A DNA stretch of 42,284 bases from Candidatus Stahliibacteriota bacterium CG08_land_8_20_14_0_20_40_26 (GTDB lineage: Bacteria; Hydrothermota; UBA3073): assembly GCA_002774315.1 (NCBI GenBank), contig PEYP01000026.1:1-42284 (forward strand), given 5' to 3'. The notes beneath the pieces are model-generated. The model ran no database searches. It had not been told where the DNA came from and saw nothing but the letters and a program-made list of their open reading frames with translations. The position numbers and the translations under genes were made by a program. This document shows, piece by piece, positions 21,728-36,892 of this stretch; the first letter of the stretch is position 1, and each line of letters begins with the position of its first letter.

Positions 21728-21873
21728 GTTTTAGGGCTTCGTAAAACTCAGCCCTTGATTATACCGATTAACATTGAGATTACGCGGATTAAAAAACCTC
21801 GTCGGGAATATCTATGTAATCTTTCCAAAACCTGTGTAATCAGGTATAATGAATATTATACCAGGAGGAACAA

Positions 21874-22776: not shown

Positions 22777-22810
22777 TTCCACCTAGTAGGTATGTAATAG
22801 GCTCAATTTC

Positions 22811-22885
22811 AGCTAACAACATGTTTGCGACGCTTCGCTAAATCCCTTTGGCAACTTCTTTTATCCTCGATACGTTAGCAGAAAT
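22811..22885 (+). repeat. attC-like imperfect palindrome
   Basis: AGCTAAC (22811) and GTTAGCA (22874) are complementary ends about 70 bp apart. The 3' box reads CGATACGTTAGCAGAAAT. Confidence 0.45.
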
Positions 22886-22969
22886 ATTACTCGGGACACT
22901 CCTAATTATGAAAGAAAGGCAAAAAATTTATAAAGTTCCATAATTTATAGCTAAAAGGAGGGTGTAAAA

Positions 22970-24679
22970 ATGGAATATCGCAGCGTCGATGAATTGGTTA
23001 GAAAGCTATCGCTTCTAAACAAGGTTGAGTCAACCAAAAAATTAACAGAGTTTTATGCAAAAGCAAGGTTTCAAATAAGACCAGAAGAATTCGATAGAAA
23101 GTACGTTGATGGAAGAGATGATGGTGGTATAGATTTCTATTATAATGAGGATACTAATTTCTTTATCTTTCAGACGAAGTTTACTGAGAGCCCGAAAAGA
23201 ACAAGTACATCTGAGATATTTAATGAAATCAGAAAACTAAAAAATACTCTGACTAATGAAAACCCGAATAGAAGAGCTAATGATTTCGTAAATTCATTAA
23301 GAAGAGAAACCGGAAATAAAGACGCTATTCTTGAAATATTATGGCTAACCACGAATATAGTAAAACCGTCCGTAAGGGAAGAGATACAAAAAGATTTAGA
23401 CGAATGGAGAAAAGAGAATGGTTGGTCGCTTGTTATTGACTTTGTCGCTATCGACAAATATGCTATAGAGAGTACAATTTATGATGTGAAACATGGCTAT
23501 ATTCCTTATACTGGCAAGAAAATATTAAAATTGCAAGAAGGAGAGTGGATAGAGAGCGAATGGGAAGAAACTCGTGTGTATTCTATTATTTGCTCAGTAG
23601 ATATTAATGATATTCTAGAATGGTTCCGTAATTCTGATGAAATAGATAGATTTCTACAGAAAAATGTTAGAGAATTTCTTGGTGAAGCTACCAAGATAAA
23701 TAAGGCAATCGCAAGATCCTATTCAGATGCCCCAACTTGGTTTTGGTATAAGCATAATGGCATCATCATTTTTGCAGATAATGTATATCTCGACAAAACA
23801 AGAAGTGAACTTGTTTTAAGAAATCCACAAGTAGTAAATGGTGGTCAAACATTAAAAGCCTTATTTTCTGCCTACGATAAAAATAATCGAAGAGGTAGTC
23901 CAGCAAAGATTATGCTTAGGATATACAGATTACCTTACGAGGATACTAAAACCTACAAAAGAAGTATCGAGATAATAGCTGCGCTAAATTCTCAGCATCA
24001 AATTAGAGCTTCAGATCTAAAATCGACCGATCCAAGACAAGTTAGATTAGAACAATTATTTGAGAATCTCGGTGCTGGTTATAAATACCTGCGAAAGAGA
24101 TCTAAAGAAGCAAAAAGCACCAGATATTCCATTACAATGAGGAATCTCGCTCTAAGATATTATGTTTGTGAGAAAACCGTACCCCATGAAGGTGTAAGAG
24201 GAAATGTTGAAGAGCTATTCGAGGAAGATAGCAAGTATGATTACGTCTTTAATGAAAAAGCGATTAATAGAGATATGGCTAATAATCACATAATAATCAA
24301 TTATGTTACTACGTGGGCCATCGATCAAATACTGAAAAAAGTAGATATGCCAAAAAGAGATGAAGAATTTTTCCCATACACAAAGTGGTTTGTTCTTGTA
24401 GATATGTATAATAAACTAATGGAATGGAAGCAGAAGAAATTTGAACTAGGTTGGCAAAGTTGGATTAACTTTATAGAAAAACCTCAATTTGAGAAGGGGA
24501 TCTCAGATTACGCCCACAAAGCTTTTAGAATAGGTAGAGAAATTATACCTGCATACGAAGAAGCGAAAGGTTTCTTTAGATCGAAAGATGCGGTGAGGAA
24601 ATTTTCTTCTAAGACAGGTAAACGAAATTTTGAATCTTCAATTAATAAAGCATATACTATATCTAAGGATGATCTATAA
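22970..24679 (+). CDS. AIPR-family abortive-infection protein with an N-terminal PD-(D/E)xK-like module
   Basis: The N-terminus reads DGRDDGGIDFYY...FFIFQTKF, an Mrr-like D...QxK pattern. The central part reads KHNGIIIF...VVNGGQTL, which matches the NNGITI/IVNGxQT hallmark of AIPR proteins. The RBS is AAGGAGGG. Confidence 0.75.
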   Translation: MEYRSVDELVRKLSLLNKVESTKKLTEFYAKARFQIRPEEFDRKYVDGRDDGGIDFYYNEDTNFFIFQTKFTESPKRTSTSEIFNEIRKLKNTLTNENPNRRANDFVNSLRRETGNKDAILEILWLTTNIVKPSVREEIQKDLDEWRKENGWSLVIDFVAIDKYAIESTIYDVKHGYIPYTGKKILKLQEGEWIESEWEETRVYSIICSVDINDILEWFRNSDEIDRFLQKNVREFLGEATKINKAIARSYSDAPTWFWYKHNGIIIFADNVYLDKTRSELVLRNPQVVNGGQTLKALFSAYDKNNRRGSPAKIMLRIYRLPYEDTKTYKRSIEIIAALNSQHQIRASDLKSTDPRQVRLEQLFENLGAGYKYLRKRSKEAKSTRYSITMRNLALRYYVCEKTVPHEGVRGNVEELFEEDSKYDYVFNEKAINRDMANNHIIINYVTTWAIDQILKKVDMPKRDEEFFPYTKWFVLVDMYNKLMEWKQKKFELGWQSWINFIEKPQFEKGISDYAHKAFRIGREIIPAYEEAKGFFRSKDAVRKFSSKTGKRNFESSINKAYTISKDDL

Positions 24680-24717
24680 GAGATAAACATTAGGCGACAT
24701 TTTAGGGAGGTGAACAC

Positions 24718-25158
24718 ATGAGAATATATCAAACCATTAGATTCCAAGGAGCAAGAAACACAACTCAGGAAAACGCCTTGATAGATACTGGAGCAGATAT
24801 ATCCATAATACCATTAAAGTTAGCTGTGATGATTGGTGCATGGCGCACGGATCAAACGATAAATATCAGTGGTGTCCATGGGCAAAGCAGAACATTACCA
24901 CTTGGGGTTGCACACATTTACTTTCCATCCTTAAGTGAAATGGGTGGGCGATTCGTTATTGCTATAAGTGACATAGAACAAAAGCCTATAATTGGTATGG
25001 ATATACTAAGACCTCTTGGAATTAACATTGATACTAGAACCCATCAGCTATCAGTAAGAAATGAACTTTGGGAAGCTTTCAAAACTTTGTCTGGCGTGGG
25101 TGTTTTAACCTTTGTGGGGATAAAGATATTGGAGTCAGTTTTCGAGGAGAAACGATGA
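24718..25158 (+). CDS. retropepsin-like (clan AA) aspartic protease, single domain
   Basis: It has the catalytic ALIDTGADISIIP (D-T-G-A) motif and the IIGMDILRPLG motif. It has a hydrophobic C-terminal helix (GVGVLTFVGIKIL). The RBS is AGGGAGG. It starts 38 nt after the AIPR stop. Confidence 0.75.
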   Translation: MRIYQTIRFQGARNTTQENALIDTGADISIIPLKLAVMIGAWRTDQTINISGVHGQSRTLPLGVAHIYFPSLSEMGGRFVIAISDIEQKPIIGMDILRPLGINIDTRTHQLSVRNELWEAFKTLSGVGVLTFVGIKILESVFEEKR

Positions 25159-25167
25159 ATGCCAAAA

Positions 25168-25280
25168 CGTCGCCTAACACATATTAAAGGCGATTTGTCC
25201 CACCTATCTACCTGTCGCTTGCCTACCGTCAGGCAGGATAGACAGGAAAAATGGTGGGCAGGCAAGAAAAAAGGTTAGTG
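25168..25280 (+). repeat. attC-like element carrying a nested palindrome insertion
   Basis: It starts with TCGCCTAACACATATTAAAGGCGATTTGTCCC (GCCTAAC at 25172). A CCTGCC-type palindrome block is inserted at 25201-25246. GTTAGTG is at 25274. Confidence 0.4.
25201..25246. repeat. compound REP-like palindrome nested in an attC-like element
   Basis: CACCTATCTACCTGTCGCTTGCCTACCGTCAGGCAGGATAGACAGG. Confidence 0.75.
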
Positions 25281-25424
25281 AATAGTAAATGGTGAATAGT
25301 GAATAGTCGTGGGAAAGGATTTGCGGTTTTTTATAAGGGAATACTGCTTATACTTTCGCAGCAGTAAGTGCAAACAACAGACAGGGTTTCTACAACATAA
25401 ATTGATTTTACGCCGAAGGCGTAC

Positions 25425-25544
25425 CTCGAGACACGCAAGAAATTATCTTGACGCCTTTTAATTATTATCACGGACTTTGCAGCTCACTACGTTCGCCCAA
25501 ATGCTTCGCACTTCGCAAAGCCCGATGACATTATCTGAAATTTT
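25425..25544 (+). repeat. degenerate 3' box followed by a family-1 attC-like element
   Basis: CTCGAGACACGCAAGAAATT is at 25425-25444. It is followed by TCTTGAC...CTTTGC(25475)/GCAAAG(25515) stem...CGATGACATTATCTGAAATT. Confidence 0.4.
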
Positions 25545-25548
25545 GCCG

Positions 25549-26280
25549 ATGAAATATAATATGGATAATCAGGAAAAATATAAAAGGTATGTCGCACATT
25601 TTGATATGTTGGGTTTTAAGAATGCAACCTTGAGAAACCCTGATGAAGCTTGGAAAGCATTAAGCAGTTTACGAGCTTGTATGGATAGAGTGTTAGAATT
25701 ACATATTAAAGTTCTATCTACAAATGAGATTATATCAAATAGAATAAAGGCTTATATCTTTTCTGATAGTATCTTAATCTTCACTTTAAGAGACGAACCC
25801 AAAGACCTCATCTCGATGTTAGTTCTAACTTCTCAGATTTTTGCAGATTCATTACATGCTTGTATTCCACTTAGAGGAGGCATTTCCTATGGTGATTTTT
25901 TCTTTAATCTAGACTTACATCTTTTTTGTGGTACTCCTTTTGTTAAAGCCTATGAGATTGGAGAAATGGTCCAATGGTCTGGAATTGTTGTAGATAAGGC
26001 TGTTGCTGAACACTATCAAAAAAATCCATTTCCCAAGTCTCGTGGTAGTCCAATCATCATACAATGGGATGTTCCAGTTAAGCCTTATGGCAAAAAGAAG
26101 TTTTGGGTCGTTAATTGGTCCGTTATTTTTAGGCGTAATTTTAAGAAAGAGCTACCAATTTCTGTTCAAGATTATTACGAAGCTTTTAAAAGCCTTTTTG
26201 GCCCTTATGAAAATTTGCCTGCCGATGTCAAAGCTAAATATGAGAATACCGTTAATTTTATAAATTCCAATTTAGGTTGA
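25549..26280 (+). CDS. hypothetical protein with a class III nucleotidyl-cyclase-like (palm) motif pattern
   Basis: The motifs occur in the order and spacing of class III cyclase domains: VAHFDMLGF (F-x-D-x-x-GF), then about 45 aa, then KAYIFSDSILIF, then about 25 aa, then PLRGGISYGDFFF, then GTPFVKAYEIGEMVQWSGIVV. The start is uncertain (ATG 25549 or 25561, no clear RBS). The ORF-track TTG at 25477 lies inside a repeat. Confidence 0.45.
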   Translation: MKYNMDNQEKYKRYVAHFDMLGFKNATLRNPDEAWKALSSLRACMDRVLELHIKVLSTNEIISNRIKAYIFSDSILIFTLRDEPKDLISMLVLTSQIFADSLHACIPLRGGISYGDFFFNLDLHLFCGTPFVKAYEIGEMVQWSGIVVDKAVAEHYQKNPFPKSRGSPIIIQWDVPVKPYGKKKFWVVNWSVIFRRNFKKELPISVQDYYEAFKSLFGPYENLPADVKAKYENTVNFINSNLG

Positions 26281-26311
26281 AAATCAAATTTATAGCAATC
26301 GGCAAAACTTC

Positions 26312-26390
26312 GTTTGACACACTGTTTGTGGCTCACTTTGTTCGCCCAAACCCTTTGGGTTTCACAAACAGCGATACCGTTATATGAAAT
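26312..26390 (+). repeat. family-1 attC-like element
   Basis: GTTTGAC starts the element. The outer stem is CTGTTTGTG (26322) / CACAAACAG (26363). The inner stem is CCCAAA/TTTGGG. The 3' box is CGATACCGTTATATGAAAT. Confidence 0.45.
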
Positions 26391-26418
26391 GCTAACAAAA
26401 TAGAAAAGGAGGAAATTT

Positions 26419-27084
26419 ATGAATCAAGTAAATCGGCCACAAAAGGCTCTACGGCGTTCGATCAGCGAGCACTACCTCGACTCGGAGGGAAATAAACAGA
26501 TTCGGGGAAGTAGTACTGACTTTGAGACGTTACCCATCCGTGTCTCTGGAGCAATACTGGATATCCCTGGCGTTGAGCAGAACAAGGAATTAAGAGAGTG
26601 GATAGGATATGCGGCTGTTTACTATGACACAGGTGAGTACGAGAAGGCACTTCACTATCTTACTCAGTCGCTAATGATAGAGCCTGCTCTTGAGCCATAT
26701 TTCTTTTACTATATGAGAGTGTGTAAGGGTGTTCTCGCGGTTCCACTAAGAAGAGATGAAGTGCTATACGAGGCGAAGCTTGTTCGATATTACGCTCTTC
26801 CAAAGTGGCTCAAATGGACAATGCTCGGTTTCGAATTCCGCTTACGGTGTAAGTGGTGTGGTCGGTATACTCCATACATCGATCCAAACGTACCAACATT
26901 CGGGTTCAGTACTTCCGCTAACTCCTGTATGTCTTGCGGTCGAATGTATCCTATGCCGTCTTGGATGTGGGATAGCCCCGACGGACGTGCCTACAGCTAC
27001 TACCGCATGTCCTTCAGTGATGAGAAATTCTACAAGGAATTTGAGCGAGACTACGACCCAAAGCCACTGTGCCAACATAAATGA
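26419..27084 (+). CDS. hypothetical TPR-like plus Cys4 zinc-ribbon protein
   Basis: It has a TPR-like helix pair (YYDTGEYEKALHYLTQSLMIEP) and a CKWCGRY...CMSCGRMY ribbon. The RBS is AAGGAGG. It looks more GC-rich than its neighbours. Confidence 0.6.
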   Translation: MNQVNRPQKALRRSISEHYLDSEGNKQIRGSSTDFETLPIRVSGAILDIPGVEQNKELREWIGYAAVYYDTGEYEKALHYLTQSLMIEPALEPYFFYYMRVCKGVLAVPLRRDEVLYEAKLVRYYALPKWLKWTMLGFEFRLRCKWCGRYTPYIDPNVPTFGFSTSANSCMSCGRMYPMPSWMWDSPDGRAYSYYRMSFSDEKFYKEFERDYDPKPLCQHK

Positions 27085-27112
27085 AAATAGTGAAAAAATG
27101 GTGAAAAAAAAT

Positions 27113-27320
27113 GGGGTCAGGCTGAAAAATAGAAATAACTTTTGAGGAAATTAAAGATAAAACTGAATAATACCTGCCTACCCTGCCTACCGGCAGGCAG
27201 GCGGCAGGCAGGTTTGTAGATTGGGAGAAAACCGAAGATAGAATATCTTGAAGAGCAAAAACTACAACCTATATAATCAAAGTTAGGATTTTAGTTATTT
27301 CTATTTTTCAGCCTGACCCC
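27113..27320. mobile_element. 208-bp MITE-like element with perfect 28-bp terminal inverted repeats
   Basis: GGGGTCAGGCTGAAAAATAGAAATAACT (27113-27140) is the exact reverse complement of 27293-27320. The interior carries a CCTGCCTACCGGCAGGCAGG block (27172-27213). Confidence 0.6.
27172..27213. repeat. compound REP-like palindrome nested in the MITE-like element
   Basis: ACCTGCCTACCCTGCCTACCGGCAGGCAGGCGGCAGGCAGGT. Confidence 0.75.
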
Positions 27321-27344
27321 AATAAAAGAGGGAGGTGGACAAAA

Positions 27345-28373
27345 ATGAGAGCAATGGTATTGAATAAGATATGCAATCTCAAGGAAAATAAGAGACCGCT
27401 CGAGTTGGTAAATCTTCCCAAACCTGTTCCGAAAGAGAGAGAAATTTTAGTAAAAGTTTCGGCATGTGGTGTCTGTCACACAGAATTGGATGAAATTGAA
27501 GGAAGAACGCCACCGCCCCGGCTTCCAGTTGTTTTGGGTCACCAGGTCGTTGGAAGGGTGGAGAAATGCGGCGGTAAAGCAGGCAAGTTTAAAATTGGAG
27601 ATAGGGTTGGGATAGCTTGGATTTATTCAGCATGCGGAAGATGCAAATTCTGTCTTGAAGGCAATGAAAATTTATGTGAAAATTTTAAAGCAACCGGTAG
27701 GGATGCCAACGGAGGGTATGCGGAGTATATTACCGTTTTAGAAGATTTTGCCTTTAAGATTCCCGATGAATTCTCCGATTCAGAAGCAGCTCCCCTTCTA
27801 TGCGCCGGAGCCATTGGCTACCGGTCACTGCGATTAACCGAGATCAAAGATGGGCAAAATCTGGGACTTACCGGATTTGGGGCTTCTGCCCACCTTGTAA
27901 TTAAGATGGTAAGACACAAATATCCAAACTCTAAAGTCTTCGTATTTGCAAGGAGTGAACAAGAAAGAAATTTTGCTAAAGAACTTGGAGCTATTTGGGT
28001 GGGAGACACTCAAGATAAACCGCCCGAAAAACTGGATTGCGTGATTGACACCACACCGGTCTGGAAGCCAGTAATAGAAGCTTTGAAGAATTTAGAAAGC
28101 GGGGGAAGACTTGTTATTAATGCAATTCGCAAAGAAGAGATAGACAAGGAATATCTTTTAAAGTTAGATTATCCAACTCATCTCTGGCATGAAAAAGAGA
28201 TAAAGAGTGTAGCCAATGTGGGTAGAAGAGATGTCAGCGAATTTTTGAAACTGGCTGCTGAAATTCCCATTAAACCCGAAGTTCAGGAATTTTCACTAAA
28301 AGAGGCAAATAAGGCATTGCTCGAGCTCAAAGAGAGAAAAATTCGGGGAGCGAAGGTATTAAGAATTGATTGA
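27345..28373 (+). CDS. zinc-dependent alcohol dehydrogenase family oxidoreductase
   Basis: It has GVCHTELDEIEG (catalytic zinc site), the structural-zinc cysteine cluster CGRCKFCLEGNENLC, and a Rossmann GLTGFGASAH motif. Confidence 0.85.
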   Translation: MRAMVLNKICNLKENKRPLELVNLPKPVPKEREILVKVSACGVCHTELDEIEGRTPPPRLPVVLGHQVVGRVEKCGGKAGKFKIGDRVGIAWIYSACGRCKFCLEGNENLCENFKATGRDANGGYAEYITVLEDFAFKIPDEFSDSEAAPLLCAGAIGYRSLRLTEIKDGQNLGLTGFGASAHLVIKMVRHKYPNSKVFVFARSEQERNFAKELGAIWVGDTQDKPPEKLDCVIDTTPVWKPVIEALKNLESGGRLVINAIRKEEIDKEYLLKLDYPTHLWHEKEIKSVANVGRRDVSEFLKLAAEIPIKPEVQEFSLKEANKALLELKERKIRGAKVLRID

Positions 28374-28385
28374 GTTAAAAGAAGG

Positions 28386-28517
28386 TCTTGACGCCTTTCC
28401 TGTCTGTCGGCAGATAGGTAATTATTATCAGCGTGGTTGCGGTTCGCCCCTTCGGGGCTCACCAAAATGCTCGCTATTGCTCGCACTTCGCAAACACGCG
28501 AGACGTTAGGAGAAATT
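28386..28517 (+). repeat. family-1 attC-like element with a nested palindrome insertion
   Basis: It starts with TCTTGACGCCTTT, followed by an insertion at 28399-28418 and then TAATTATTATCA. The stem is GCGTGGTTGCG / CGCAAACACGC with one mismatch. The inner hairpin is GCCCCTTCGGGGC. The 3' box is CGAGACGTTAGGAGAAATT. Confidence 0.45.
28399..28418. repeat. REP-like palindrome (CCTGTC...GATAGG variant)
   Basis: CCTGTCTGTCGGCAGATAGG interrupts a sequence that is contiguous in the homologous copy at 25446-25470. Confidence 0.7.
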
Positions 28518-28547
28518 GGCTGGTATGTTGAGGAGGTAGATGTCTAA

Positions 28548-29342
28548 ATGGTAGAAGATAGATCTAATGATATTGAAAGTATAAGAAAGAGGTGGGACGA
28601 GCATGTTAATAGATACGATGAGTGGTATAAGACTTTTGAAGGTGCCGTTGAACACCATGTGGAGTGGGAGCTGCTAAAAGGATATCTCCCAAAAAACAGA
28701 GATGCAAAGATCTTAGATGCTGCTGGCGGTACTGGTAGGATAACACTCCCTTTGGCGAAGATGGGATACTCAGTTACTCTATGTGATATCTCTCCCGGGA
28801 TGCTAAATGTGGCAAGGCAAAAATTGCTTAGAGAGGGGGTCTTAGATAAAGTAGAGATCTTGGAGTGCGATGTTTGCAAACTTCATTTTGCCGACGAGAG
28901 TTTCGATTTTGTTCTCTGCTGGGATGGGATGATCGAAGCCGCAAAAGAGCTCATACGAGTGACAAAGAAGGGAAGAAGGCTTTCAATATTTCTAATGAAT
29001 AAATGCAGTGATGCCATTAGTAAGTTTCGCGACGACCCCGATTCTGCTCTTGCTCTACTTAGATCAAAATCGAATTATGTCTACCATGATGAAGGGAAAC
29101 ACATGGCTGTTAGCGTGGAAGAGGCAAGGGAGCTCTTTGAGAAGGAAGGAATCAAGGTTATCGAGATCTACGCCGTTTGCGGTATGCTGGAATTGCTCTC
29201 TATCCCAGAAAAAACTCGAGAATCTTGCAATTGGGATGAAAAATCCTTCAGGCAGGTGACTGAGATGCTATTAAGATTGAGTAAAGAGCCTTCGGTTAAA
29301 GGATTGCCAAGACACCTGGTTTTATATGGAGAGAGAATTTAG
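28548..29342 (+). CDS. class I SAM-dependent methyltransferase
   Basis: SAM motif I is present as ILDAAGGTGRITLPLA. The RBS is GAGGAGG. Confidence 0.8.
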   Translation: MVEDRSNDIESIRKRWDEHVNRYDEWYKTFEGAVEHHVEWELLKGYLPKNRDAKILDAAGGTGRITLPLAKMGYSVTLCDISPGMLNVARQKLLREGVLDKVEILECDVCKLHFADESFDFVLCWDGMIEAAKELIRVTKKGRRLSIFLMNKCSDAISKFRDDPDSALALLRSKSNYVYHDEGKHMAVSVEEARELFEKEGIKVIEIYAVCGMLELLSIPEKTRESCNWDEKSFRQVTEMLLRLSKEPSVKGLPRHLVLYGERI

Positions 29343-29401
29343 GAGGAGAAATGTTGGGCGACAAGAACAGAAAATATTGATGCCCAGAGTTAATCAGCCA
29401 T

Positions 29402-29480
29402 CTTCGCCTAACACATAGGTCAGGCGATTGTCCCCGCCAGAGGCGGAGCTTCGTAAACCCGCGTACCGTTACACGCTATT
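29402..29480 (+). repeat. attC-like element
   Basis: It starts with TTCGCCTAACACATAGGTCAGGCGATTGTCCCC and has a central CCGCC-AGA-GGCGG hairpin. The 3' box is GCGTACCGTTACAC. GCCTAAC is at 29406 and GTTACAC at 29468, 69 bp overall. Confidence 0.45.
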
Positions 29481-29518
29481 GCAAAATTTAGTAGGGACAA
29501 TAAAGGTGGTGGATAGAC

Positions 29519-30349
29519 ATGAAAATTAAGAACCTCAACGACAAGAATCTAAAAGATATAGTAGAACCCTGTGTTTGCGAAGAATGGGTTAAAAAGTTTG
29601 CAAAGAACAACGATGTAAATCTTGAAAGAGTTAAAGGAGGTTTCTCTAAGGGCGCAGAATTAAGAATCGATTGGATAAAGAAAAGGTTACCTTTAGGTTA
29701 TAGAGCAAAGATTGCGTATGAGGAAGAGAAGCCGGTTGGATTTATTGATTACTTACCCATAGAAATAGCACAAGACCCTATCTTGGGATATGATATTACT
29801 GTGATTAATTGCATACTTATTATTCCAGGTGATAGTTATAGAAGCAAAGGCTATGGAAGGATTTTACTTGAATTGGCCGAGGCTGATGCAGAAAAGATGA
29901 GCAGAGGAATTGCGGTTGTAGCTCATAACCATCCAAGATGGATGCCCGCTTCATTCTTTACAAAGATGGGTTACAACATAGTTGATGAGCAAAACGGTAA
30001 GATTAAAGAAATACTTATGCTAAAGACATTTCAGTCGGTTGAATCGCCTATGTTTGTAGAATCAGCAAATACACATAACCAAAAGTCGGTATCTGATAAA
30101 GTAATAGTAGAAATATTTTGTAGTGGAGCCTGTCCACATAATCTAATGAGTGTTGAATTGTTAAAAGAATCGCTAATTGAATTCGGAGATAAGGTAATTA
30201 TAAAAGAAGTGATAACCAACGATTTGGCATCGGATGTGCGCAGGAAATATGGACACAGTTACGGTGTCTATATAAACGGCAAGCCTAACTTCTGGTTATT
30301 AGGGGCTTCAAAAGATGAAATTCGTCAAGAAATAGAGAACAATTTATGA
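29519..30349 (+). CDS. GNAT N-acetyltransferase fused to a thioredoxin-like (CxxC) domain
   Basis: The GNAT motif A region reads YRSKGYGRILLELAE. The C-terminal ~80 aa (VEIFCSGACPHN...YGVYINGKP) resemble small Thioredoxin_3-type proteins. Confidence 0.6.
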   Translation: MKIKNLNDKNLKDIVEPCVCEEWVKKFAKNNDVNLERVKGGFSKGAELRIDWIKKRLPLGYRAKIAYEEEKPVGFIDYLPIEIAQDPILGYDITVINCILIIPGDSYRSKGYGRILLELAEADAEKMSRGIAVVAHNHPRWMPASFFTKMGYNIVDEQNGKIKEILMLKTFQSVESPMFVESANTHNQKSVSDKVIVEIFCSGACPHNLMSVELLKESLIEFGDKVIIKEVITNDLASDVRRKYGHSYGVYINGKPNFWLLGASKDEIRQEIENNL

Positions 30350-30376
30350 AGAAAGGCGGGAATTGAGGGGTATGCT

Positions 30377-31102
30377 ATGGCAAAGAGAAGAGAATTTCGT
30401 AAAGAAGGACCTGCGAAGGTGAAAACTTTAGATTTGAAGCTGATAGATTCTTTAGAGAAGAAATACGGTCCTCTTTGGGAGACTATATGGCCAGAGGAAT
30501 ATTCTTTCAAAGAGCCATTCAAAAAGTTGATAATTACAGTTCTTTCTCAAAACACAAGTGAAGCCAATTGCATTCGAGCCTATAATGGTTTACGAGCGAG
30601 ATTCAATATCACACCACAGGTTCTTGCAGAGGCAAAGCAAGATGAGATTAAAGAAGCTATTAGAAGTGGCGGGCTCTATAATGTGAAGGCAAAGAGGATT
30701 AAGGAACTGTCTAAAGCCGTTTTAGAAAAATTCAGGGGTGACTTATCAACCGTCCTTAATTTTCCCAAGGAAGAAGCGAAAAAGAGGTTAATGGAGCTAC
30801 CGGGGATAGGAGATAAAACAGCTGATGTGCTTCTAACCAGCCGCTACTCCTATCAGAGGGTGATACCCATTGATACACATTTTGAAAGAGTTACAAAGCG
30901 AATAGGTTTAGTTGCACGAGATGCTGATTACAATGCGGTGCAGAAAGCTTTGATGCATTTTTTACCTGAGGAGAGGCGAGCTAGACTCTCTGGTTTAATG
31001 TGGCTACTTGCCAAAAACACATGTCGAGCAAAGAATCCAAAATGTTACGAATGTCCACTCGCTTCTCTATGTGAATATAAAATCAAGAAGGAGGTATCAT
31101 AA
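30377..31102 (+). CDS. endonuclease III-like HhH-GPD DNA glycosylase with a 4Fe-4S cluster loop
   Basis: The HhH motif is LPGIGDKTADVLL. The C-terminal cysteine cluster is CRAKNPKCYECPLASLC. Confidence 0.8.
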   Translation: MAKRREFRKEGPAKVKTLDLKLIDSLEKKYGPLWETIWPEEYSFKEPFKKLIITVLSQNTSEANCIRAYNGLRARFNITPQVLAEAKQDEIKEAIRSGGLYNVKAKRIKELSKAVLEKFRGDLSTVLNFPKEEAKKRLMELPGIGDKTADVLLTSRYSYQRVIPIDTHFERVTKRIGLVARDADYNAVQKALMHFLPEERRARLSGLMWLLAKNTCRAKNPKCYECPLASLCEYKIKKEVS

Positions 31103-31335
31103 TGGCAAATCCGTTTAATTGGGTAGAAATAAGGACGAGGGATTTAGAGAGAGCAAAGAAGTTCTATGAGGCTCTGTTTGGCTGGAAGATAAGCGGGAAG
31201 GAGAATAAGGATTTCGCCTACTGGCTTATTGATACGGGCGCCAAACCAGGTGGTGGTATGTGGCGAATGCCCGAGGGTAAGCCGCTCGGTGTTTTTTTAC
31301 TTGACAGACACCATTTTTTGTATTATAATGTATAG
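31102..31335 (+). pseudogene. VOC/glyoxalase-family gene truncated after about 63 codons
   Basis: The N-terminus FNWVEIRTRDLERAKKFYEALFGWK...GGGMWRMPEGKPLGV is typical of ~120-aa VOC proteins. From about 31290 the sequence switches to a T-run plus a consensus promoter, and the reading frame ends in junk (FLLDRHHFLYYNV). Confidence 0.65.
31301..31329 (+). promoter_or_regulatory. sigma70-type promoter of the hicBA module
   Basis: TTGACA, 17 nt, TATAAT. It lies inside the junk 3' end of the truncated VOC ORF. Confidence 0.6.
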
Positions 31336-31475
31336 CAGATTTGGAGAAAGCATAGCTCTTTGTAAAATTCAATCATAACTTACTTGTTTGAAAAATCTTA
31401 CCACAGTCAAGTGAGCTATTCCTATGGTGAAGTTTTAAAAAGAATAGAGACCAATAATTTATACAAGGGAGGGGT

Positions 31476-31691
31476 ATGTTAAGCAACTATACAGCCATTA
31501 TTGTAAAAAGCGAAGACTGGTATGCAGGATTTATCAAGGAATTACCTGGAGCTCATTCACAAGGCAGAACGATAGAAGAGGTCAGGGAAAACTTAAAAGA
31601 GGCAATAAAGATGGTTATTGAGTCGAACTACAGACACTCTATTGAGGGATATGAAAAAGTTATTGAGGAAAAAATGACTGTGAATATATGA
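31476..31691 (+). CDS. hicB: HicB-family antitoxin
   Basis: YTAIIVKSEDWYAGFIKELPGAHSQGRTIEEVRENLKEAI matches the HicB N-terminal fold pattern. It overlaps hicA by 4 nt (ATGA). Confidence 0.8.
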   Translation: MLSNYTAIIVKSEDWYAGFIKELPGAHSQGRTIEEVRENLKEAIKMVIESNYRHSIEGYEKVIEEKMTVNI

Positions 31692-31882
31692 AGAGAAAGG
31701 ACTTTTTAAGGCATCTAATAAGCAATGGATGTGAGCTTGAACGCAAAGGGAAAAAGCACACATTATTTTACAATCCTGTGACCAGCAAATCTGCGACTGT
31801 TCCCAGACATAAAGAACTCAATACTTTCACTGCAAAAGCAATATGTAAGGATTTAGGTATCCCAATTATAAAAACCCGATAG
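31688..31882 (+). CDS. hicA: HicA-family mRNA interferase toxin
   Basis: KRKDFLRHLISNGCELERKGKKHTLFYNP...VPRHKELNTFTAKAICKDLGIP is a typical HicA sequence. Confidence 0.8.
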   Translation: MKRKDFLRHLISNGCELERKGKKHTLFYNPVTSKSATVPRHKELNTFTAKAICKDLGIPIIKTR

Positions 31883-31891
31883 TAAATTTTT

Positions 31892-32063
31892 TAACTGTAA
31901 TTCAGACAGTAATAATGATAGAGTAAGGTTTTATAAGTCGAAGAATTATTAATGAGGCAAATCTACCTGTCGGTAGACAGGTATCAGCAAGTTAGTAAGA
32001 CAAATTTTTTGATTATAAGGTAATTAAGAGACTAACATTGAAGATGGTCTAAAATTACAGTTA
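31892..32063. repeat. about 170-bp element bounded by 11-16-bp inverted repeats
   Basis: TAACTGTAATT (31892-31902) pairs with AATTACAGTTA (32053-32063), and the pairing extends with one bulge. A TACCTGTCGGTAGACAGGTA palindrome lies inside it (31964-31983). Confidence 0.4.
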
Positions 32064-32070
32064 GTTTCTC

Positions 32071-32099
32071 TTGACTTATTATTGTTTCGATTCTAAAAC
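32071..32099 (+). promoter_or_regulatory. weaker promoter-like element
   Basis: TTGACT, 17 nt, TAAAAC. The -10 is imperfect. Confidence 0.3.
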
Positions 32100-32124
32100 T
32101 AAATAATCAAAAGGGAGTAAGAAT

Positions 32125-32250
32125 ATGTTTTCTTCTTTCTCTATATTTTGGTGGTTTCCGGATTTCAAGCAAAATGGATATCTAAATAACATTCTTAACA
32201 ACTTATTATCCCTCGAGTGTGGCCCACATTTTGAGGGATTTTTTATTTAA
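32125..32250 (+). CDS. possible 41-aa small ORF (speculative)
   Basis: The ATG is preceded by AAGGGAG at good spacing. The ORF ends inside a hairpin (CCCTC...GAGGG) followed by a T-run. A TTGACT-N17-TAAAAC element lies upstream. There is no recognisable similarity. Confidence 0.2.
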   Translation: MFSSFSIFWWFPDFKQNGYLNNILNNLLSLECGPHFEGFFI

Positions 32251-32504
32251 AATTCAGCCTCTCTACTGATAGGTAGAAAGGTATGTAATGAAGTGAAAAG
32301 GCAACCAAGTTCCAGGCCTTTACACCTATCTGCCGACAGGTAGATAACACATAAGGTAGAGAAAGGGTAAAGATTCTTTACCACACAACCCATGCAAAAA
32401 TCCTGGGCAAGATGCCAAAAATTGAGCACTGAAGCCAAAACCGATAGGAAGACCAAAGAAGAATAAATAAATGATCGCTGTCCCTATTTTTAATGGAGGG
32501 AAAT

Positions 32505-34229
32505 ATGAAGAAATTTGTAGTTATTGGAGCGATAGCTGCTCTGGCTGGCCTATGTTACGGAGCAACCTGGGAAAGAACTTATCCTCAGTTGGGTCATACC
32601 CAGGATTGGTCTGATCGAGCAAGTATAATTAGTATGAAATATTGGGGGCTAGCGGTTAGCGATCCCTACTTTTACAAAGATTTAGTTATTGACCCTTACA
32701 AAGAGGTAAAGGAAGGCGAAGAACAATATTTTTCAGTCTGGGTAGCGGATTCAGATCCAGAAGGAGAAATAGAAACAGTAACAGTATCGATTGAAACAGA
32801 TAAAGGTAGGATTGTATTCGACCTTGAATTAGTAGAGGGAACAAAAAAGGACGGCCGGTGGATGGGTTCTTGGACAGTGAAAAATATTTCAAGTCAAGCT
32901 TACTATTTTACCCAGGTTTGTTATAGAACTAACAGAGGTCAAATGCAAGCAAGGAATCTTTTTTTGTGTCCTTCCTTACAAATGCTACCCTTAAATCCTG
33001 AGTGGATGTACTTCGGCCAAGAGAATTCTTCTCTACCCTCTCCTACAATCTCATCTCTTATTGTTGACCCGGAACAAAATATATGGATCGGAACCTGGGA
33101 GAGTGGTTTAGCAAAATTCGATGGAGTCAATTTTATAGTGTATAACACAGATAACTCTGAACTACCAAATAATGCAGTTAGGGCTCTGGCTGTTGATACG
33201 AAAGGCAACATCTGGATCGCGACCCCAGAGGGATTAGCAAAGTTTGACGGAGAAAATTGGACAATCTATACTCCAGAAAATTCCGGAGTTCCCCTCGCTA
33301 TCAATGCCATTGCTATTGATGCTCAAGATAATTTGTGGCTTGGAATACCAAGATGTGGGATTGATGACAGGGAATTTTTAAAGTTTAACGGAGTTAACTG
33401 TGAGATAATAGAAAATCGTGTGCTGGTAAGCAATATTGTCAGAAGTATTGTTATTGATAGCAGTGGAAACAAATGGATCGGGCAAAATAATGGTATGAGT
33501 GGAGGCTTATCAGTCTATCGCCAAGGAGGAGTGATTCTTCCTGTTATGGTCACATTACTCTCACCTTCTGATAATAGTTATTTAAACGATGACATAGTCA
33601 ACTTCATCTGGAACGCTAATAAGCCGGGTAGCGTTGACCATTATATTCTCCACTATGCTCTGAACAGTGGCTTTTCACAGGGACTGGTTGAAACTACTTC
33701 AGTTGATACTACATTTACGACTACACTCGCTGATACAACTTATTACTGGAGAGTGAAGGCAGTGGATAGGGCAGAAAATCAAAGTGATTGGTCATCAGTA
33801 TGGTACTTTGAGATAGACACACACTCACCTGGTACTCCTGCCCTTATTTCACCACCAGATAGTAGTTGGCTCAACGATAATGCGATTGCTTTTGAGTGGA
33901 GTGAGGTAGCAAAGGGAACAGTAGGCAGTAAGCAGTGTGGAGTAGGCAGTAATGTAGGGCAAGGCTTAAGCCTTGCGTCAAGTGAGCATAATACAGGCTC
34001 AAAGTCTTCTCCCATTCATTATATCCTTCAGGTGGATACGACCTTAAACTTCAATACACCAATTACTGATACAACGAATGTAACTTACGATACACTCACT
34101 CTGGATGAATATCTCTATTACTGGAGAGTTAGAGCCTATGACGAGGCAGGAAACGAGGGCGAGTTCTCTCAAGTTTCCTGTTTTGTGGTTGACACTACCA
34201 CAAGATATAATAGGAGGAGAAATGGATAA
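32505..34229 (+). CDS. secreted protein with two-component-regulator-propeller-like repeats and Ig/Fn3-like repeats; C-terminus appears disrupted
   Basis: It has a signal peptide (MKKFVVIGAIAALAGLCYG). It has Reg_prop-like repeats (NIWIGTWESGLAKFDG, NIWIATPEGLAKFDGENW). It has two YYWRV(K/R)A...D-containing beta-sandwich repeats. The ATG at 32505 follows GGAGGGA. Confidence 0.7.
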   Translation: MKKFVVIGAIAALAGLCYGATWERTYPQLGHTQDWSDRASIISMKYWGLAVSDPYFYKDLVIDPYKEVKEGEEQYFSVWVADSDPEGEIETVTVSIETDKGRIVFDLELVEGTKKDGRWMGSWTVKNISSQAYYFTQVCYRTNRGQMQARNLFLCPSLQMLPLNPEWMYFGQENSSLPSPTISSLIVDPEQNIWIGTWESGLAKFDGVNFIVYNTDNSELPNNAVRALAVDTKGNIWIATPEGLAKFDGENWTIYTPENSGVPLAINAIAIDAQDNLWLGIPRCGIDDREFLKFNGVNCEIIENRVLVSNIVRSIVIDSSGNKWIGQNNGMSGGLSVYRQGGVILPVMVTLLSPSDNSYLNDDIVNFIWNANKPGSVDHYILHYALNSGFSQGLVETTSVDTTFTTTLADTTYYWRVKAVDRAENQSDWSSVWYFEIDTHSPGTPALISPPDSSWLNDNAIAFEWSEVAKGTVGSKQCGVGSNVGQGLSLASSEHNTGSKSSPIHYILQVDTTLNFNTPITDTTNVTYDTLTLDEYLYYWRVRAYDEAGNEGEFSQVSCFVVDTTTRYNRRRNG

Positions 34230-34413
34230 ATTAAAATGTGATAAGTGCGGTAGAGAGTTCCTTTTTGGCGAAAAGATGCGAATCTGCGACAAATGTGGTG
34301 CCAGATTATGCATATCTTGCTCAGGTGGTGGGGGCTATGGAGACTACAAGACTGTATGCCCGATATGTCACCAGTCTGCGACTATGAGAGAGCAAGAGTA
34401 TAAAGGTTGGTAA
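34222..34413 (+). CDS. 63-aa double zinc-ribbon protein
   Basis: MDKLKCDKCG...CDKCGARLCISC...CPICH. The ATG at 34222 is preceded by AGGAGG and overlaps the upstream stop (ATGGATAA). The longer ORF-track form starting at 34105 is an out-of-frame overlap. Confidence 0.6.
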   Translation: MDKLKCDKCGREFLFGEKMRICDKCGARLCISCSGGGGYGDYKTVCPICHQSATMREQEYKGW

Positions 34414-34553
34414 AATCAATCTGCAAAGCTACCAAAGCTACGGGTTACCACAAAATCAGGATAAACTCGGGAAGTCTCTCGTCTGGCATCTATTTTTTGA
34501 GATTTGAGGTTGAAGGATACAATGCAACCAGGAAACCATTGATAATTAGATAG
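34404..34553 (+). pseudogene. orphan remnant of a T9SS/FlgD-Ig-type C-terminal sorting domain
   Basis: My own translation of this frame gives ...GYHKIRINSGSLSSGIYFLRFEVEGYNATRKPLIIR*. This is the characteristic SGIYF(L/V)R...K..(L/I) tail of T9SS cargo. It has no start codon and no upstream body. Confidence 0.55.
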
Positions 34554-34851
34554 TGTTCTAACATCCCTTTTATAATACCTTGAAATCACTGAAGGAACAA
34601 CGAGACCAAACGATAATAGTTCTATCCATAGGAATAACTATAGGTCAGTTAAAGATCGCTTTGAGAAGAGGCTTAAAATTGGTGAAGGTGTCAAATTTAT
34701 TCTGTGCCAGGGATGTATATCCAACATTATCAGATATAAACGAGTTAGCCGAAGCCGATCATATCTGGGGTTTTATTGTGGGTGGGATAAGATCGCTGGA
34801 TATGTTCGGGAAAAAAACCTGCAATCACCACCCGCAAAAAAGGAGGAAAGC

Positions 34852-35568
34852 GTGAAGGGTAAAGTTGCAGTGACTATTGTGGCTTTGGTAGTTTTGGCGT
34901 TTATCGCTCCTACATTAGCTTACAGTAACGAAGGAGCGGTAAAAGGCGGTGGTGGAGGCGGTTTCATGTTCGGGATGAACAGGCTTAATTTGGCAGAACT
35001 CAGCACGAAGTTGGAAGCCAAAGGGTTTGAAGCTCTGGAGAAGAACAACATTTCTTTCGGTGGTGGAGGCTATGGAATAATCGGTGAGAAGATTCTACTC
35101 GGTGGTGAAGGACATGGTTCTCAACAAGCCATTTTTAGCGATACCTTGAAAGCCTCGGTTAGTGCTGGCTATGGATTTTTCGATGTAGGCTATGTGCTTT
35201 TGTCGAAGAAGAGTTTTAGGCTCTTTCCGATAGTTGGATTAGGAGGTGGTGGCATTGACTTGAGAATCTTAGAAAGGGGTGTTACACCTACCTTTGATGA
35301 GATATTAGACAATCCTGGTAGGGAAGCGAACATCTCGACAGGTAGTATCTTACTTCAATTTGGAGCAGGCCTGGATTATTTTTTGAAACTTGGTGAAGAT
35401 GAAAAAGGGGAAGGTGGATTACTTTTTGGCATTCGAGCAGGATACACTTATGCCCCCACCCAGGCGGACTGGAAAATGGGAGATATGGATGTTTTGGGCG
35501 GTCCTGATATTGGAGTTACGGGTCCTTATATCCATTTAATCTTTGGCGGTGCAGGGTTTGGAAAGTAA
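34852..35568 (+). CDS. secreted Gly-rich, beta-barrel-like hypothetical protein
   Basis: The GTG start follows AAGGAGG. It has a signal peptide (VALVVLAFIAPTLAYS) and alternating beta-strand-like segments with GGGG turns. Confidence 0.55.
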   Translation: MKGKVAVTIVALVVLAFIAPTLAYSNEGAVKGGGGGGFMFGMNRLNLAELSTKLEAKGFEALEKNNISFGGGGYGIIGEKILLGGEGHGSQQAIFSDTLKASVSAGYGFFDVGYVLLSKKSFRLFPIVGLGGGGIDLRILERGVTPTFDEILDNPGREANISTGSILLQFGAGLDYFLKLGEDEKGEGGLLFGIRAGYTYAPTQADWKMGDMDVLGGPDIGVTGPYIHLIFGGAGFGK

Positions 35569-35607
35569 AGAATGCTTTAGCTTGAGATAGCGGGGGAAAG
35601 TCCGCCG

Positions 35608-35779
35608 CTTCGCCTAACACATATCTACCTATCGGTAGACAGGTTAAAAGCGATTTGTCCCTCTCTACCTGTCGCCTGCCTACCGTCAGGCAGGGTAGAC
35701 AGGCAGAGAAAATAAATGTTCTATCTGTGACCTCTGTGGTTGATGTCTTACATAACAAAAGAAGCAGAGGGGGTTAAGT
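35608..35779 (+). repeat. attC-like element with two nested palindrome insertions
   Basis: It starts with TTCGCCTAACACAT, interrupted by an insertion at 35625-35644. This is followed by TAAAAGCGATTTGTCCC and a second insertion at 35665-35703. GTTAAGT at 35773 lies directly before the next start codon. Confidence 0.35.
35665..35703. repeat. compound REP-like palindrome
   Basis: CTACCTGTCGCCTGCCTACCGTCAGGCAGGGTAGACAGG. Confidence 0.75.
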
Positions 35780-36130
35780 ATGGCCAAAGGGAACCAGATG
35801 ATTGCAGTTTGTGGATTGGACTGCAATGGATGTGATATCCTTCAGGCACCAAACAATCCTGAAATAGCACAGCAAATTGTAGACTGGTTTAAAAAAGAAA
35901 GAGATACCGAGGTAAAGATCAAGGACATCCGTTGCTCTGGTTGTAAGGGTGACAGAACAAAACACTGGTCTCCAGACTGTTGGATATTCAAATGTTGTGT
36001 TGATAAGAAGAGGTTAGAATTTTGCTGTGAATGTGTTGATTTTCCATGCGAGAAATTTAACGAGTGGGCTAAAGGAAGCAAGAAATATGGGGAAGCTCTA
36101 AACCGACTCAAGGGGATGAGGAAGAAATAA
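35780..36130 (+). CDS. DUF3795-like cysteine-rich protein
   Basis: CGLDCNGCD at the N-terminus and further cysteine clusters (CSGCKG, CWIFKCC, CCECVDFPC) match the DUF3795 pattern. The RBS is GAGGGGG. Confidence 0.65.
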   Translation: MAKGNQMIAVCGLDCNGCDILQAPNNPEIAQQIVDWFKKERDTEVKIKDIRCSGCKGDRTKHWSPDCWIFKCCVDKKRLEFCCECVDFPCEKFNEWAKGSKKYGEALNRLKGMRKK

Positions 36131-36163
36131 GGCAGGCGACGCACCTAAAGAAAGGGAGCAATT

Positions 36164-36892
36164 ATGTCAGATTTTGATGATGCATTCGGACATGGGTTGT
36201 ATGATTATTTAAAAGGCAAGGGTCAGTCTATCATCATAGAAAGAGATGACGGCCTCATAGAGGCGGGAAGAATCGCAGGATATTTTGCAGAATATCTTGA
36301 CTGGCCTGAACATGAAAAAAAAGCATTGAAATATACCAAGGGGAGGGTTCTTGACATAGGATGCGGTGTAGGAAGACATTCAATATATCTTCAAGAAAGA
36401 GGATTGGATGTATTAGGAACGGATATATCCCCACTGGCAATCAAGGCTTGTAAACTCAGAGGGTTGAAAAAGGCAAAAGTATTGCCAATCACACAAATCG
36501 GAAGAGATCTAGGTAAATTTGATACGATACTTATGCTTGGTAATAATTTTGGACTCTTTGCAAATAAGAAAAGAATAAAATGGCTCCTACAAAGGTTCTA
36601 TAACATCACCACAGAAAACGCACTCATAATAGCAGAAACAAGAGACCCATACAAAACAGACGAGTCTATACATCTGAAATACCACGAATCTAACTGAAAA
36701 AGAGGAAGAATGGCGGGTCAAATAAGGCTCAGAATACGATATAAAATCTACGCAGATCCATGGATTGACTATTTGATGGTATCTCAAGAAGAAATGAAGG
36801 CGATGCTTAACGATACCAGATGGTCAGTCAAGAAATTTATAGAATCAGATACGGCAATGTATATATCTGTTATTCAGAAGAAAGGCTACTAA
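36164..36892 (+). pseudogene. class I SAM-dependent methyltransferase interrupted by one in-frame TGA (36695-36697)
   Basis: ORFs 36164..36697 (VLDIGCGVGRHSIYL motif) and 36710..36892 are in the same frame. Only TGA separates them: ...KYHESN*KRGRMAGQIRLRIRYK.... Confidence 0.6.

Follow-up and report, generated by a model that had tools for sequence, protein, structure and literature searches.

Is a run of about 18 co-oriented genes of unrelated function, with palindromic repeats in its spacers, an integron-type cassette array that lacks its integrase? The question is raised by a 42,284-bp contig of the groundwater Candidatus Stahlbacteria metagenome-assembled genome (MAG) CG08_land_8_20_14_0_20 (G+C about 40%), the whole of which is called the window here. 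The genes fill positions 22.8-36.9 kb between two conserved anchors, the gene of a LolA-like protein and the gene of a tricorn-like protease. The first-pass annotation of this DNA had taken the block for a sedentary cassette array or for a cluster of attC sites lacking an integron integrase (CALIN, as defined by IntegronFinder; PMC4889954, PMC9024848). What stands of this claim is a cassette-like, hypervariable array of co-oriented genes with a hairpin family, termed e; the attC identity of the repeats is unproven, the departures concerning above all the extrahelical bases, the GTT triplet and the breakpoints. The reading that we find most likely, though with slightly less than even confidence, is a CALIN-like cassette array in decay, whose attC-like sites are non-canonical.

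The e hairpin family

Related loci and contigs (L-numbers) were fetched via homologues of the LolA-like protein (35-93% identity), and a covariance model, R1, was built from an 11-copy alignment (A4) of e elements, with e2 and e4 outside the training set. R1 matched 20 times in 255 kb, always on the + strand and inside LolA-linked arrays, and one more distinct copy was found in L069. All 21 distinct copies lie on the gene strand and are confined to arrays. The copies and fragments in the window are the following, R'' and R' denoting the left and right terminal boxes:

22804-22887, + strand: e1; R1 65.7 bits, E=7e-13; fold z=-0.95; R stem intact (ATTTCaGCTAAC/GTTAGCaGAAAT), L stem broken
25165-25285, + strand: e left-end fragment (CGTCGCCTAACACATA..AGGCGATTTGTCCC) with a nested palindrome resembling repetitive extragenic palindromes (REP-like) at 25203-25250; R1 12.6 bits; no end-to-end hairpin
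25459-25543, + strand: e2; R1 38.4 bits, E=1e-6; L stem intact; R'' replaced by TAATTATTATCA; R'=ATTATCT
26305-26392, + strand: e3; R1 80.1 bits; R''=GTTTGAC, L stem CTGTTTGTG/CACAAACAG, R'=GTTATAT
28386-28518 (core 28419-28518), + strand: e4; R1 36.7 bits; L stem intact, R'' replaced, R'=GTTAGGA
29399-29481, + strand: e5; R1 40.2 bits; R''=GCCTAAC, R'=GTTACAC; L stem largely lost, only the ends kept
35608-35779, + strand: e left-end fragment (CTTCGCCTAACAC), interrupted by REP-like palindromes at 35620-35643 and 35662-35703; right end uncertain

From R'' to R' the element measures 58-110 nt and forms one imperfect hairpin. A basal R stem of 7-12 bp, with the ends (A)nTTCnGYCTAAC and GTTAGnnGAAAT, is followed by an unpaired, asymmetric inner spacer with 1-2 nt in the left arm and 5-6 nt in the right arm, a second stem (L) of 9-17 bp and a variable loop with the motifs GTTCGCC, CAAAT and CTTCGCAAA. 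Integron attC sites are single imperfect hairpins of 55-140 nt with RYYYAAC/GTTRRRY ends; an R box and an L box are separated by an unpaired spacer, the terminal structure varies, and near the L box the bottom strand has two or three extrahelical bases. The consensus ends of e, GYCTAAC...GTTAGAT, match RYYYAAC...GTTRRRY and close the hairpin at its base by mutual pairing; AAC is found in 16 of 20 copies, and TAAC pairs with GTTA in most of them.

The hairpin is conserved through covariation. Within the 11-copy alignment 79.8% of the cells in the basal R stem and the inner L stem were paired, compared to 34-41% with slid partners, and double changes occurred at 10 pairs. The 20-copy alignment gave 77.7% (32-41% when slid), with compensatory changes at 10-11 pairs overall. 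The two main L-stem types, GGTGTTTGTGG/CCACAAACACC and AGCATAAAAGG/CTTTTATGCT, differ at most positions yet stay complementary, and positions 2-3 of the R box switch compensatorily between GC and TA, as seen in GCTAAC/GTTAGC and TATAAC/GTTATA.

Relative to the genes, e has the polarity of integron cassettes, running from an ORF stop through R'' and R' to the next open reading frame (ORF). Copies in the window are 0.8-2.6 kb apart, 25-57 nt past a stop codon (about 300 nt for e2) and 18-83 nt ahead of the next start. Multiple copies between co-oriented ORFs were also found elsewhere (L045 2988 and 7787; L054 881 and 2264; L031 7169; L037 3214 and 5737), and those at L045 7787, L031 7169 and L054 2264 follow unrelated genes in several lineages.

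Outside the array, R1 gave no significant match in the remaining ~28 kb of the window (filters off), in the flanks, or in the 43 kb that surround, in other phyla, homologues of the array gene encoding a 239-aa protein. The e pattern had 0 matches in viral contigs, and the spacers contained no Rfam family, neither at the gathering threshold nor at E<=5. The R'-like box and GCCTAAC had been described as absent from the housekeeping DNA of the window. This is correct for the e family as such; the heptamer GCCTAAC alone occurs at chance frequency (4 found, 3.4 expected), for which reason its count was rejected as evidence. Two functional readings of the element were likewise discarded: an intrinsic terminator, as no T-run or U-tract is present, and a promoter in the right end, as the putative -35/-10 positions vary across copies. 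Direct observation covers the repeat family with its hairpin, its orientation and its confinement to the array, as well as the variability of the locus described below.

Preservation differs among the window copies. The best is e3, the only one that keeps both stems; at 80 bits it had been underrated as a weaker pair (26312-26379) in the first-pass annotation, whose homology between 25446-25544, 26312-26390 and 28386-28517 was confirmed by sequence comparison. The left end of e2 and e4 is a differing one (CTTGACGCCTTT..TAATTATTATCA), split in e4 by a REP palindrome at 28399-28418, and e1 of L029 holds a 20-nt palindrome insertion. Compared to the copies in L035, L044, L037 and L045 (L045b), e1 is chimeric, with a type-A left arm and a type-B right arm joined at the shared AACTTC, which, as far as the sequence indicates, looks like recombination inside the loop. 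Among the four palindromes originally ranked best by their xCTAAC...GTTAGx ends, 22811-22874 and 29406-29468 are family members with broken inner stems, whereas 25172-25274 and 35612-35773 have ends that do not pair with each other and a REP-like bulk. The fragments at 25165 and 35608 match e5 over only the first ~35 nt, where REP-like palindromes take over. When the bottom strands of 25172-25274, 29406-29468 and 35612-35773 were folded, GCCTAAC lay in a local hairpin, TCGCCT...AGGCGA, and was unpaired with the distal GTTAG. Regarding 25172-25280 and 35612-35776 as attC hairpins invaded by REP-like palindromes was rejected, since folds of -0.06 to -0.10 kcal/mol/nt were still obtained after excision of these palindromes.

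The e element is closely tied to the LolA-like gene, which it follows in 14 loci. Its first copy, e1, was kept 3' of this gene across 57-93% protein identity with compensatory changes, and the LolA-like gene plus e is the sole segment common to distant loci. Its layout there consists of the left end CTTCG(G/C)CTAACA, a stem, a loop, the complementary stem and the right end GAnAACGTTAnnnGAAAT. In L054 the gene is bracketed by e copies, in L044 it is preceded by an e remnant, and in L068 it lacks any e. This association fits a module of ORF plus site, and just as well a structured element that belongs to the gene's 3' end.

Turnover between the two anchors

Between the LolA-like and tricorn-like genes, 1 gene is found in L029, 1 in L041 and 3 in L031, compared to ~18 in the window. 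The flanks of four sister genomes agree with the window at ~94% (LolA side) and 88-89% (tricorn) nucleotide identity, whereas the interval between them is wholly different. The following arrangements were seen, MITE-like standing for a resemblance to miniature inverted-repeat transposable elements and ADH for an alcohol dehydrogenase gene:

L029: LolA, ADH, tricorn; L029 2177-3233 matches window 27321-28377 at 92%
L041: LolA, 218-bp MITE-like element, small methyltransferase (window 36155 onward), tricorn
L031: LolA, MITE-like element, two unrelated genes, MITE-like element, methyltransferase, tricorn
L035: LolA, e1, part of the MITE-like element, ADH; the contig stops short of tricorn

These comparisons support a cassette-like, hypervariable, co-oriented array. 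Homology breaks at window positions 22822 (after CTAACAA, at the left end of e1), 27321 (MITE end), 28377 and ~36155, and a further breakpoint lies within the e1 loop at AACTTC. Presence/absence polymorphism had been expected at the GTT boundaries; the breakpoints are found elsewhere, at the left end of e1, at MITE ends and in the e1 loop. The repeat at several of these junctions has the following window copy:

27104-27321, no strand assigned: MITE-like element, 218 bp, with 29-nt perfect terminal inverted repeats and a REP-like core

Further copies with 86-91% identity lie directly at haplotype junctions in L031 (6547-6755 and 8900-9099) and L041 (2288-2485). No clear target-site duplication was detected at the MITE-like element. 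In three genomes it is located 20-50 nt upstream of a start codon (of ADH, a methyltransferase or a 108-aa ORF). The window copy contains a promoter-like site at 27248-27277, for which conservation is lacking in the two copies of L031.

Near-identical contigs (at least 99.6%; L009 98.8% over a short segment) are present in about a dozen groundwater metagenomes. Many of these assemblies break at 23182, because some strains carry an insertion sequence (IS) there, within the AIPR gene (L016 11310-11586, L017, L020-L022). This IS has an outward promoter-like TTGACA...TAAAAT and a transposase with the N-terminus MFLRVVRIKKGSQVYKYLKLV; its insertion at 23182 led us to reject this break as a cassette boundary.

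The gene content was assigned mainly by Pfam:

21874-22776, + strand: LolA-like gene, left conserved anchor; weak Pfam LolA_like match
22970-24679, + strand: AIPR (Abi-like) gene; Pfam PF10592, 1e-33
24718-25158, + strand: retropepsin-like aspartic protease gene; Pfam PF13975, PF13650
25561-26280, + strand: 239-aa protein without Pfam family, the sole gene with e copies on both sides
26419-27084, + strand: TPR protein gene; Pfam TPR_2
27345-28373, + strand: Zn-dependent ADH gene; Pfam ADH_N; sole gene between the anchors in L029
28548-29342, + strand: class I SAM methyltransferase gene; Pfam
29519-35568, + strand: second array part without internal e copy; GNAT, Nth-like HhH-GPD glycosylase, truncated VOC, hicBA, Reg_prop/Ig, Zn-ribbon, 91-aa and 238-aa proteins (Pfam)
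35780-36892, + strand: DUF3795 gene, small methyltransferase gene (36164-36697) and 60-aa ORF; Pfam
36870-39932, - strand: tricorn-like protease gene, right conserved anchor, convergent; Pfam; 88-89% conserved in L029, L031 and L041

As the first-pass annotation had it, the block is one-directional, every called gene from 22970 to 36892 being on the + strand. Pfam also confirmed that its genes, two or three of them for methyltransferases, belong to unrelated families, and gave no support to the labels 'cyclase-like' and 'thioredoxin fusion'. The VOC gene is truncated to 77 aa, the 91-aa and 238-aa proteins have no Pfam family, and hicB/hicA occupy 31476-31882. With Abi/AIPR, HicBA, methyltransferases, one truncated gene and one spacer devoid of ORFs, the block has the contents that cassette arrays typically carry. 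No compositional break of the 22.8-36.9 kb block was apparent in a G+C check of the window. The small methyltransferase gene (36164-36697) adjoins tricorn in L031 and L041 as well. LolA and accA lie upstream of the array and tricorn downstream, and the 10 kb past each window end are housekeeping DNA.

Regarding expression signals, the conserved CGA-type box proposed earlier was recovered as CGAnAC(C)GTTAnnnGAAAT upstream of the starts at 22970, ~25550, 26419 and 28548. The notion of a single strong promoter (21699-21727) is refuted by a perfect sigma-70 consensus, TTGACA-17-TATAAT, at 31301-31329, within the 3' end of the truncated VOC ORF and ~150 nt upstream of hicB. Since this consensus precedes hicB, hicBA appears to own its promoter, and as internal promoter-like sites exist, a Pc-like promoter for the array is unnecessary.

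Two further observations concern individual genes. Homologues of the 239-aa protein (40-80% identity) occur in Omnitrophota, Desulfobacca, Melioribacteraceae and Azotobacter (loci including L061, L063 and L064), usually among toxin-antitoxin or defence-type genes (HEPN/NTase, PIN/VapB, SLFN/AlbA_2); neither e elements (43 kb scanned) nor an integrase were found beside these homologues of other phyla. The region upstream of the LolA-like gene in the window (21700-21873) is unlike that of its closest relatives (L029 330-499, L031 5428-5597), whose pre-LolA segment (AGGAGGTGATGACAATGACAAGAAATTAGAAATA...) is common to the far more distant L037 (4700-4793); this sequence pattern hints that the lineage of the window has had its LolA leader or promoter region replaced.

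Likeness to attC sites and rival explanations

For comparison, 12 distinct attC sites were extracted from class-1 cassette arrays of plasmids. The bottom strands of these real sites fold into one hairpin of -0.19 to -0.32 kcal/mol/nt with two known bulged bases (T and G). A structure-only screen required AAC paired to GTT, at least 5 of 8 R/Y positions, an energy <=-0.18 kcal/mol/nt and at least 50% symmetric pairing. False positives were few, and the screen found 16 of the 17 real attC occurrences as well as 2 of the 3 held-out sites. Intact e copies of L035 (1512-1580), L044 (1340-1408), L045 (2995-3053), L046 (1746-1803) and L069 (1777-1845) passed this screen at -0.21 to -0.30 kcal/mol/nt with a symmetric pairing of at least 0.67. 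If e is accepted as attC-like, and only then, the array contains the two or more co-oriented sites spaced by cassettes that define a CALIN. A covariance model from a MAFFT alignment of full-length attC sites was dropped because RNAalifold gave only 4 spurious pairs; as a proxy, model R2 was built from the 12 class-1 sites trimmed to their R/L boxes ('mini-attC').

Several results weigh against a canonical integron. Among 490 candidates in the window, 0 passed the structure screen. Extrahelical bases are missing: the L stems of L046, L045, L044 and L035 are unbroken over the first 9-11 bp, and folding of bottom strands, the check proposed in the first-pass annotation, yielded none in intact e copies. 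The unpaired spacer of e is lopsided, with 1-2 nt facing 5-6 nt, whereas attC has about 5 facing 5. The GTT triplet of attC sites is nearly invariant, and at this position of R' e reads GTT in 14, ATT in 5 and GAT in 1 of 20 copies; the ATT copies of L051 and L052 are otherwise well conserved (57-61 bits on R1), and only outer L-stem pairs can form in them. R2 found 19 real sites and none in the window or its relatives at E<=10, the top non-significant match being L046 1746-1803 (8.2 bits); as R2 is insensitive and misses 2 of 3 held-out, divergent real sites (qnrVC1 and cupin cassettes), this negative is not decisive. Conversely, R1 run on real integrons matched no real attC site. No breakpoint was seen at the G|TT of R' among the five haplotypes compared, few being available, and homology between L035 and L031 continues straight across R'. 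In L069 the LolA-like gene and e are followed by a convergent feoB, with no array.

Moreover, tblastn with IntI1 detected neither IntI nor a full tyrosine recombinase in the window and its 10-kb flanks (~62 kb) or in related loci, in agreement with the earlier statement that the window contains no tyrosine recombinase. The sole match was a weak, 85-aa Xer-like C-terminal fragment at the edge of L045 (3-260), for which the Xer models of NCBIfam give better scores than the integron-integrase model TIGR02249. Its assignment as IntI was rejected, since it is Xer-like and belongs to a family of 58-149-aa fragments. This family (proteins P0088-P0113) represents only the C-terminal catalytic part of a tyrosine recombinase (PF00589); it occurs on many metagenome contigs with 45-100% identity to the query, one member being recorded with a HicA domain. 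A literature search linking integrons to Stahlbacteria or WOR-3 found nothing. Among CALINs in general, 95% are without a recognisable intI pseudogene within 10 kb (PMC4889954).

According to the reading as a decayed CALIN-like array, the e hairpins would be, or would once have been, folded-DNA recombination sites of a site-specific tyrosine recombinase encoded elsewhere in the genome, and units of ORF plus e would be excised and inserted, with e working like an integron attC site. Most sites in the window would have decayed, two having lost R'', two or three the inner stem, and several having taken up small palindromes. Present changes of the array would come mainly from homologous recombination, with e loops and the 218-bp MITE-like element as the repeats involved, and from insertion of MITE, REP and IS elements. 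We infer both the recombination-site function of e and its recombinase. Strict membership in the integrons is unproven: e has no extrahelical bases and no IntI was found beside the array, and both of these features are defining ones.

The main rival, which we regard as realistic though somewhat doubtful, is an ordinary flexible islet in which e is no recombination site; its defence, toxin-antitoxin and accessory genes would lie at a hotspot of recombination flanked by two core genes. The element would then be a hairpin of the 3' untranslated or intercistronic RNA, a protein-binding palindrome or a REP-like repeat that arose at LolA and was duplicated locally, and turnover would result from homologous recombination in the flanks and between repeats together with MITE, REP and IS activity. 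The retention of e1 3' of LolA over 57-93% identity with compensatory changes, including in the non-array locus L069, is consistent with this, as are the unconserved GTT in otherwise conserved copies, the lack of extrahelical bases and the breakpoints at MITE ends and within the e loop. The genome is rich in other small palindromic repeats, with a transposase remnant of the RAYT (REP-associated tyrosine transposase) type in L029; strict co-orientation with transcription fits a role at the RNA level, internal promoter-like sites exist and no recombinase was found. However, the missing U-tract rules e out as an intrinsic terminator and no Rfam family matches it. Furthermore, the agreement of both ends with RYYYAAC/GTTRRRY, at the correct positions of the hairpin and with cassette polarity, would be a coincidence, and a LolA-specific regulatory element leaves the e copies after unrelated genes (L045 7787, L031 7169, L054 2264) unexplained.

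It is unlikely, yet deserves attention, that the hairpins are sites of a previously undescribed cassette system of a Stahlbacteria/WOR-3-related lineage, integron-like in that modules of ORF plus hairpin form one-directional arrays. The 12-bp basal stem, the one-sided 6-nt spacer and the absence of extrahelical bases would then be a site geometry peculiar to this system, the recombinase would be other than a canonical IntI, for example a Xer-like one encoded elsewhere, and the LolA-like gene would be a mobile module as well. We consider it very unlikely that XerC/D-like enzymes move modules between directly repeated sites in a system analogous to the pdif modules of Acinetobacter. Taken as a duplex, the right half of e has the simple core-site geometry of tyrosine recombinases, with arms of 11 bp and 11-12 bp around a 6-bp spacer (e.g. 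CCACAAACACC GAGAAC GTTAGCAGAAAT), the sites are always in direct orientation, and a Xer-like fragment lies near the L045 array. But the two arms are not mutual inverted repeats, a covarying hairpin is needless for a duplex site, the Xer-like match comes from the family of 58-149-aa fragments, and no breakpoints were seen in the 6-bp spacer. Hardly probable at all is a canonical active integron with intI just beyond the sequence examined. It would account for a co-oriented array with attC-like sites, and MAG contigs are fragmentary; against this, the array ends abut LolA/accA and tricorn, DNA 10 kb past each window end is housekeeping, the sites in the window are mostly non-foldable and the canonical attC hallmarks are lacking.

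Other repeats and known systems

Short GC-rich palindromes are dispersed over the intergenic DNA of the window in both orientations, at 2322, 8947-9412, 25203-25250, 27173-27211, 28399-28422, 31961-31984, 32258-32348, 35620-35703, 40049-40087, 40249-40267 and 40533-40571, with more at 4761-4835, 9728, 10398 and 33950. They comprise the families CCTGCCTACCGGCAGGCAGG, CCTGTCTGCCGATAGGTAGATAGG and the GTAG-headed GTAGGGGCGAACTGCAGTTCGCCC, and some are inserted inside e elements. By their sequence they look like REP elements. Most of the spacers 25172-25274 and 35612-35773 consists of a nested GC-rich palindrome, CTACCTGTCGCCTGCCTACCGTCAGGCAGGGTAGACAGG, which recurs beside a tRNA gene at 9035-9087, with related palindromes at 2322, 8947-9412 and 40049-40571. 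As these also lie outside the block, the spacer palindromes represent a genome-wide REP-like family and not a property of the block. Dispersal in both orientations, the mark of REP elements, is seen for the GC-palindrome families (2322, 4761, 8947-9412, 40049-40571) and not for the e family. In L029, the spacer holds a remnant of a Y1/RAYT-like transposase (1716-1856; MSHVFYQLYYHFIWG...).

Two other intergenic repeats were noted in the window. A ~165-nt duplicate, 97-100% identical, is located at 8571-8737 and 40360-40535, 32 kb apart; it begins TGTCAAGAAAAAAG and includes a GC-rich hairpin. At 8387-8499, upstream of the REP cluster and a tRNA gene (9467-9556), an 8-nt unit (GTTAGTTG/GTTAGTTT) is repeated in tandem in ~14 copies.

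REP elements and bacterial interspersed mosaic elements (BIMEs) are mobilised by RAYT (Y1/HUH) transposases. The e family resembles them and MITEs in being a short intergenic palindromic repeat, and the same genome has GTAG-type REPs, the 218-bp MITE-like element and the RAYT-like remnant. Unlike REP/BIME, e is confined to the array and strictly co-oriented with the genes, and its ends are conserved and asymmetric. The REP-like palindromes are a separate family from e, because they occur to the left and right of the block and also interrupt e copies. Acinetobacter pdif modules, acted on by XerC/D, often carry toxin-antitoxin or resistance genes between duplex sites of alternating orientation without a conserved hairpin. 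The small accessory modules and the 11-6-11 geometry of the right half of e are reminiscent of them; in contrast to pdif, e sites are direct repeats with a covariation-supported hairpin.

Conservation of the whole repeat within a lineage, including its loop motifs, is shared with the Vibrio cholerae repeats (VCRs) and other attC families of sedentary integrons. VCR arrays consist of tens to hundreds of near-identical sites adjoining intIA, whereas the window holds five decayed e copies and two fragments with no integrase. The array resembles CALINs in several respects. Its accessory genes are co-oriented, unrelated and for the most part small, with a toxin-antitoxin pair and a defence gene among them; one gene is truncated and one spacer has no ORF. 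It is hypervariable among close relatives, no integrase is nearby, and its imperfect hairpins of 58-110 nt are lineage-specific, with RYYYAAC...GTTRRRY ends and the same polarity to ORFs. Unlike CALINs, the e sites have no extrahelical bases, an asymmetric spacer, a basal stem of up to 12 bp (ATTTCnGCTAAC/GTTAGCnGAAAT) and ATT in a quarter of the copies; they were missed by the proxy attC model, and haplotype breakpoints are not at G|TT. One e site is stably attached to the LolA-like gene over deep divergence, and the 6.3 kb from the GNAT gene to the 238-aa gene have no internal site.

Integrons are the best-understood natural platforms of gene capture, and to our knowledge almost all that is known of attC comes from Proteobacteria. 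In a candidate-phylum lineage, the e family shares the terminal consensus and the overall fold of attC without the features thought essential for strand choice by IntI. If the reading as a decayed CALIN-like array is true, the accepted structural range of attC widens, as does what searches of the IntegronFinder type should accept; if the hairpins serve another recombinase, they represent a parallel cassette system. Should they be only RNA or gene-end elements, they teach that a co-oriented island can be mistaken for a CALIN on account of palindromes with RYYYAAC...GTTRRRY ends. The 21 diverged copies with their compensatory changes provide a ready covariance model for metagenome scans and for the search for a partner recombinase.

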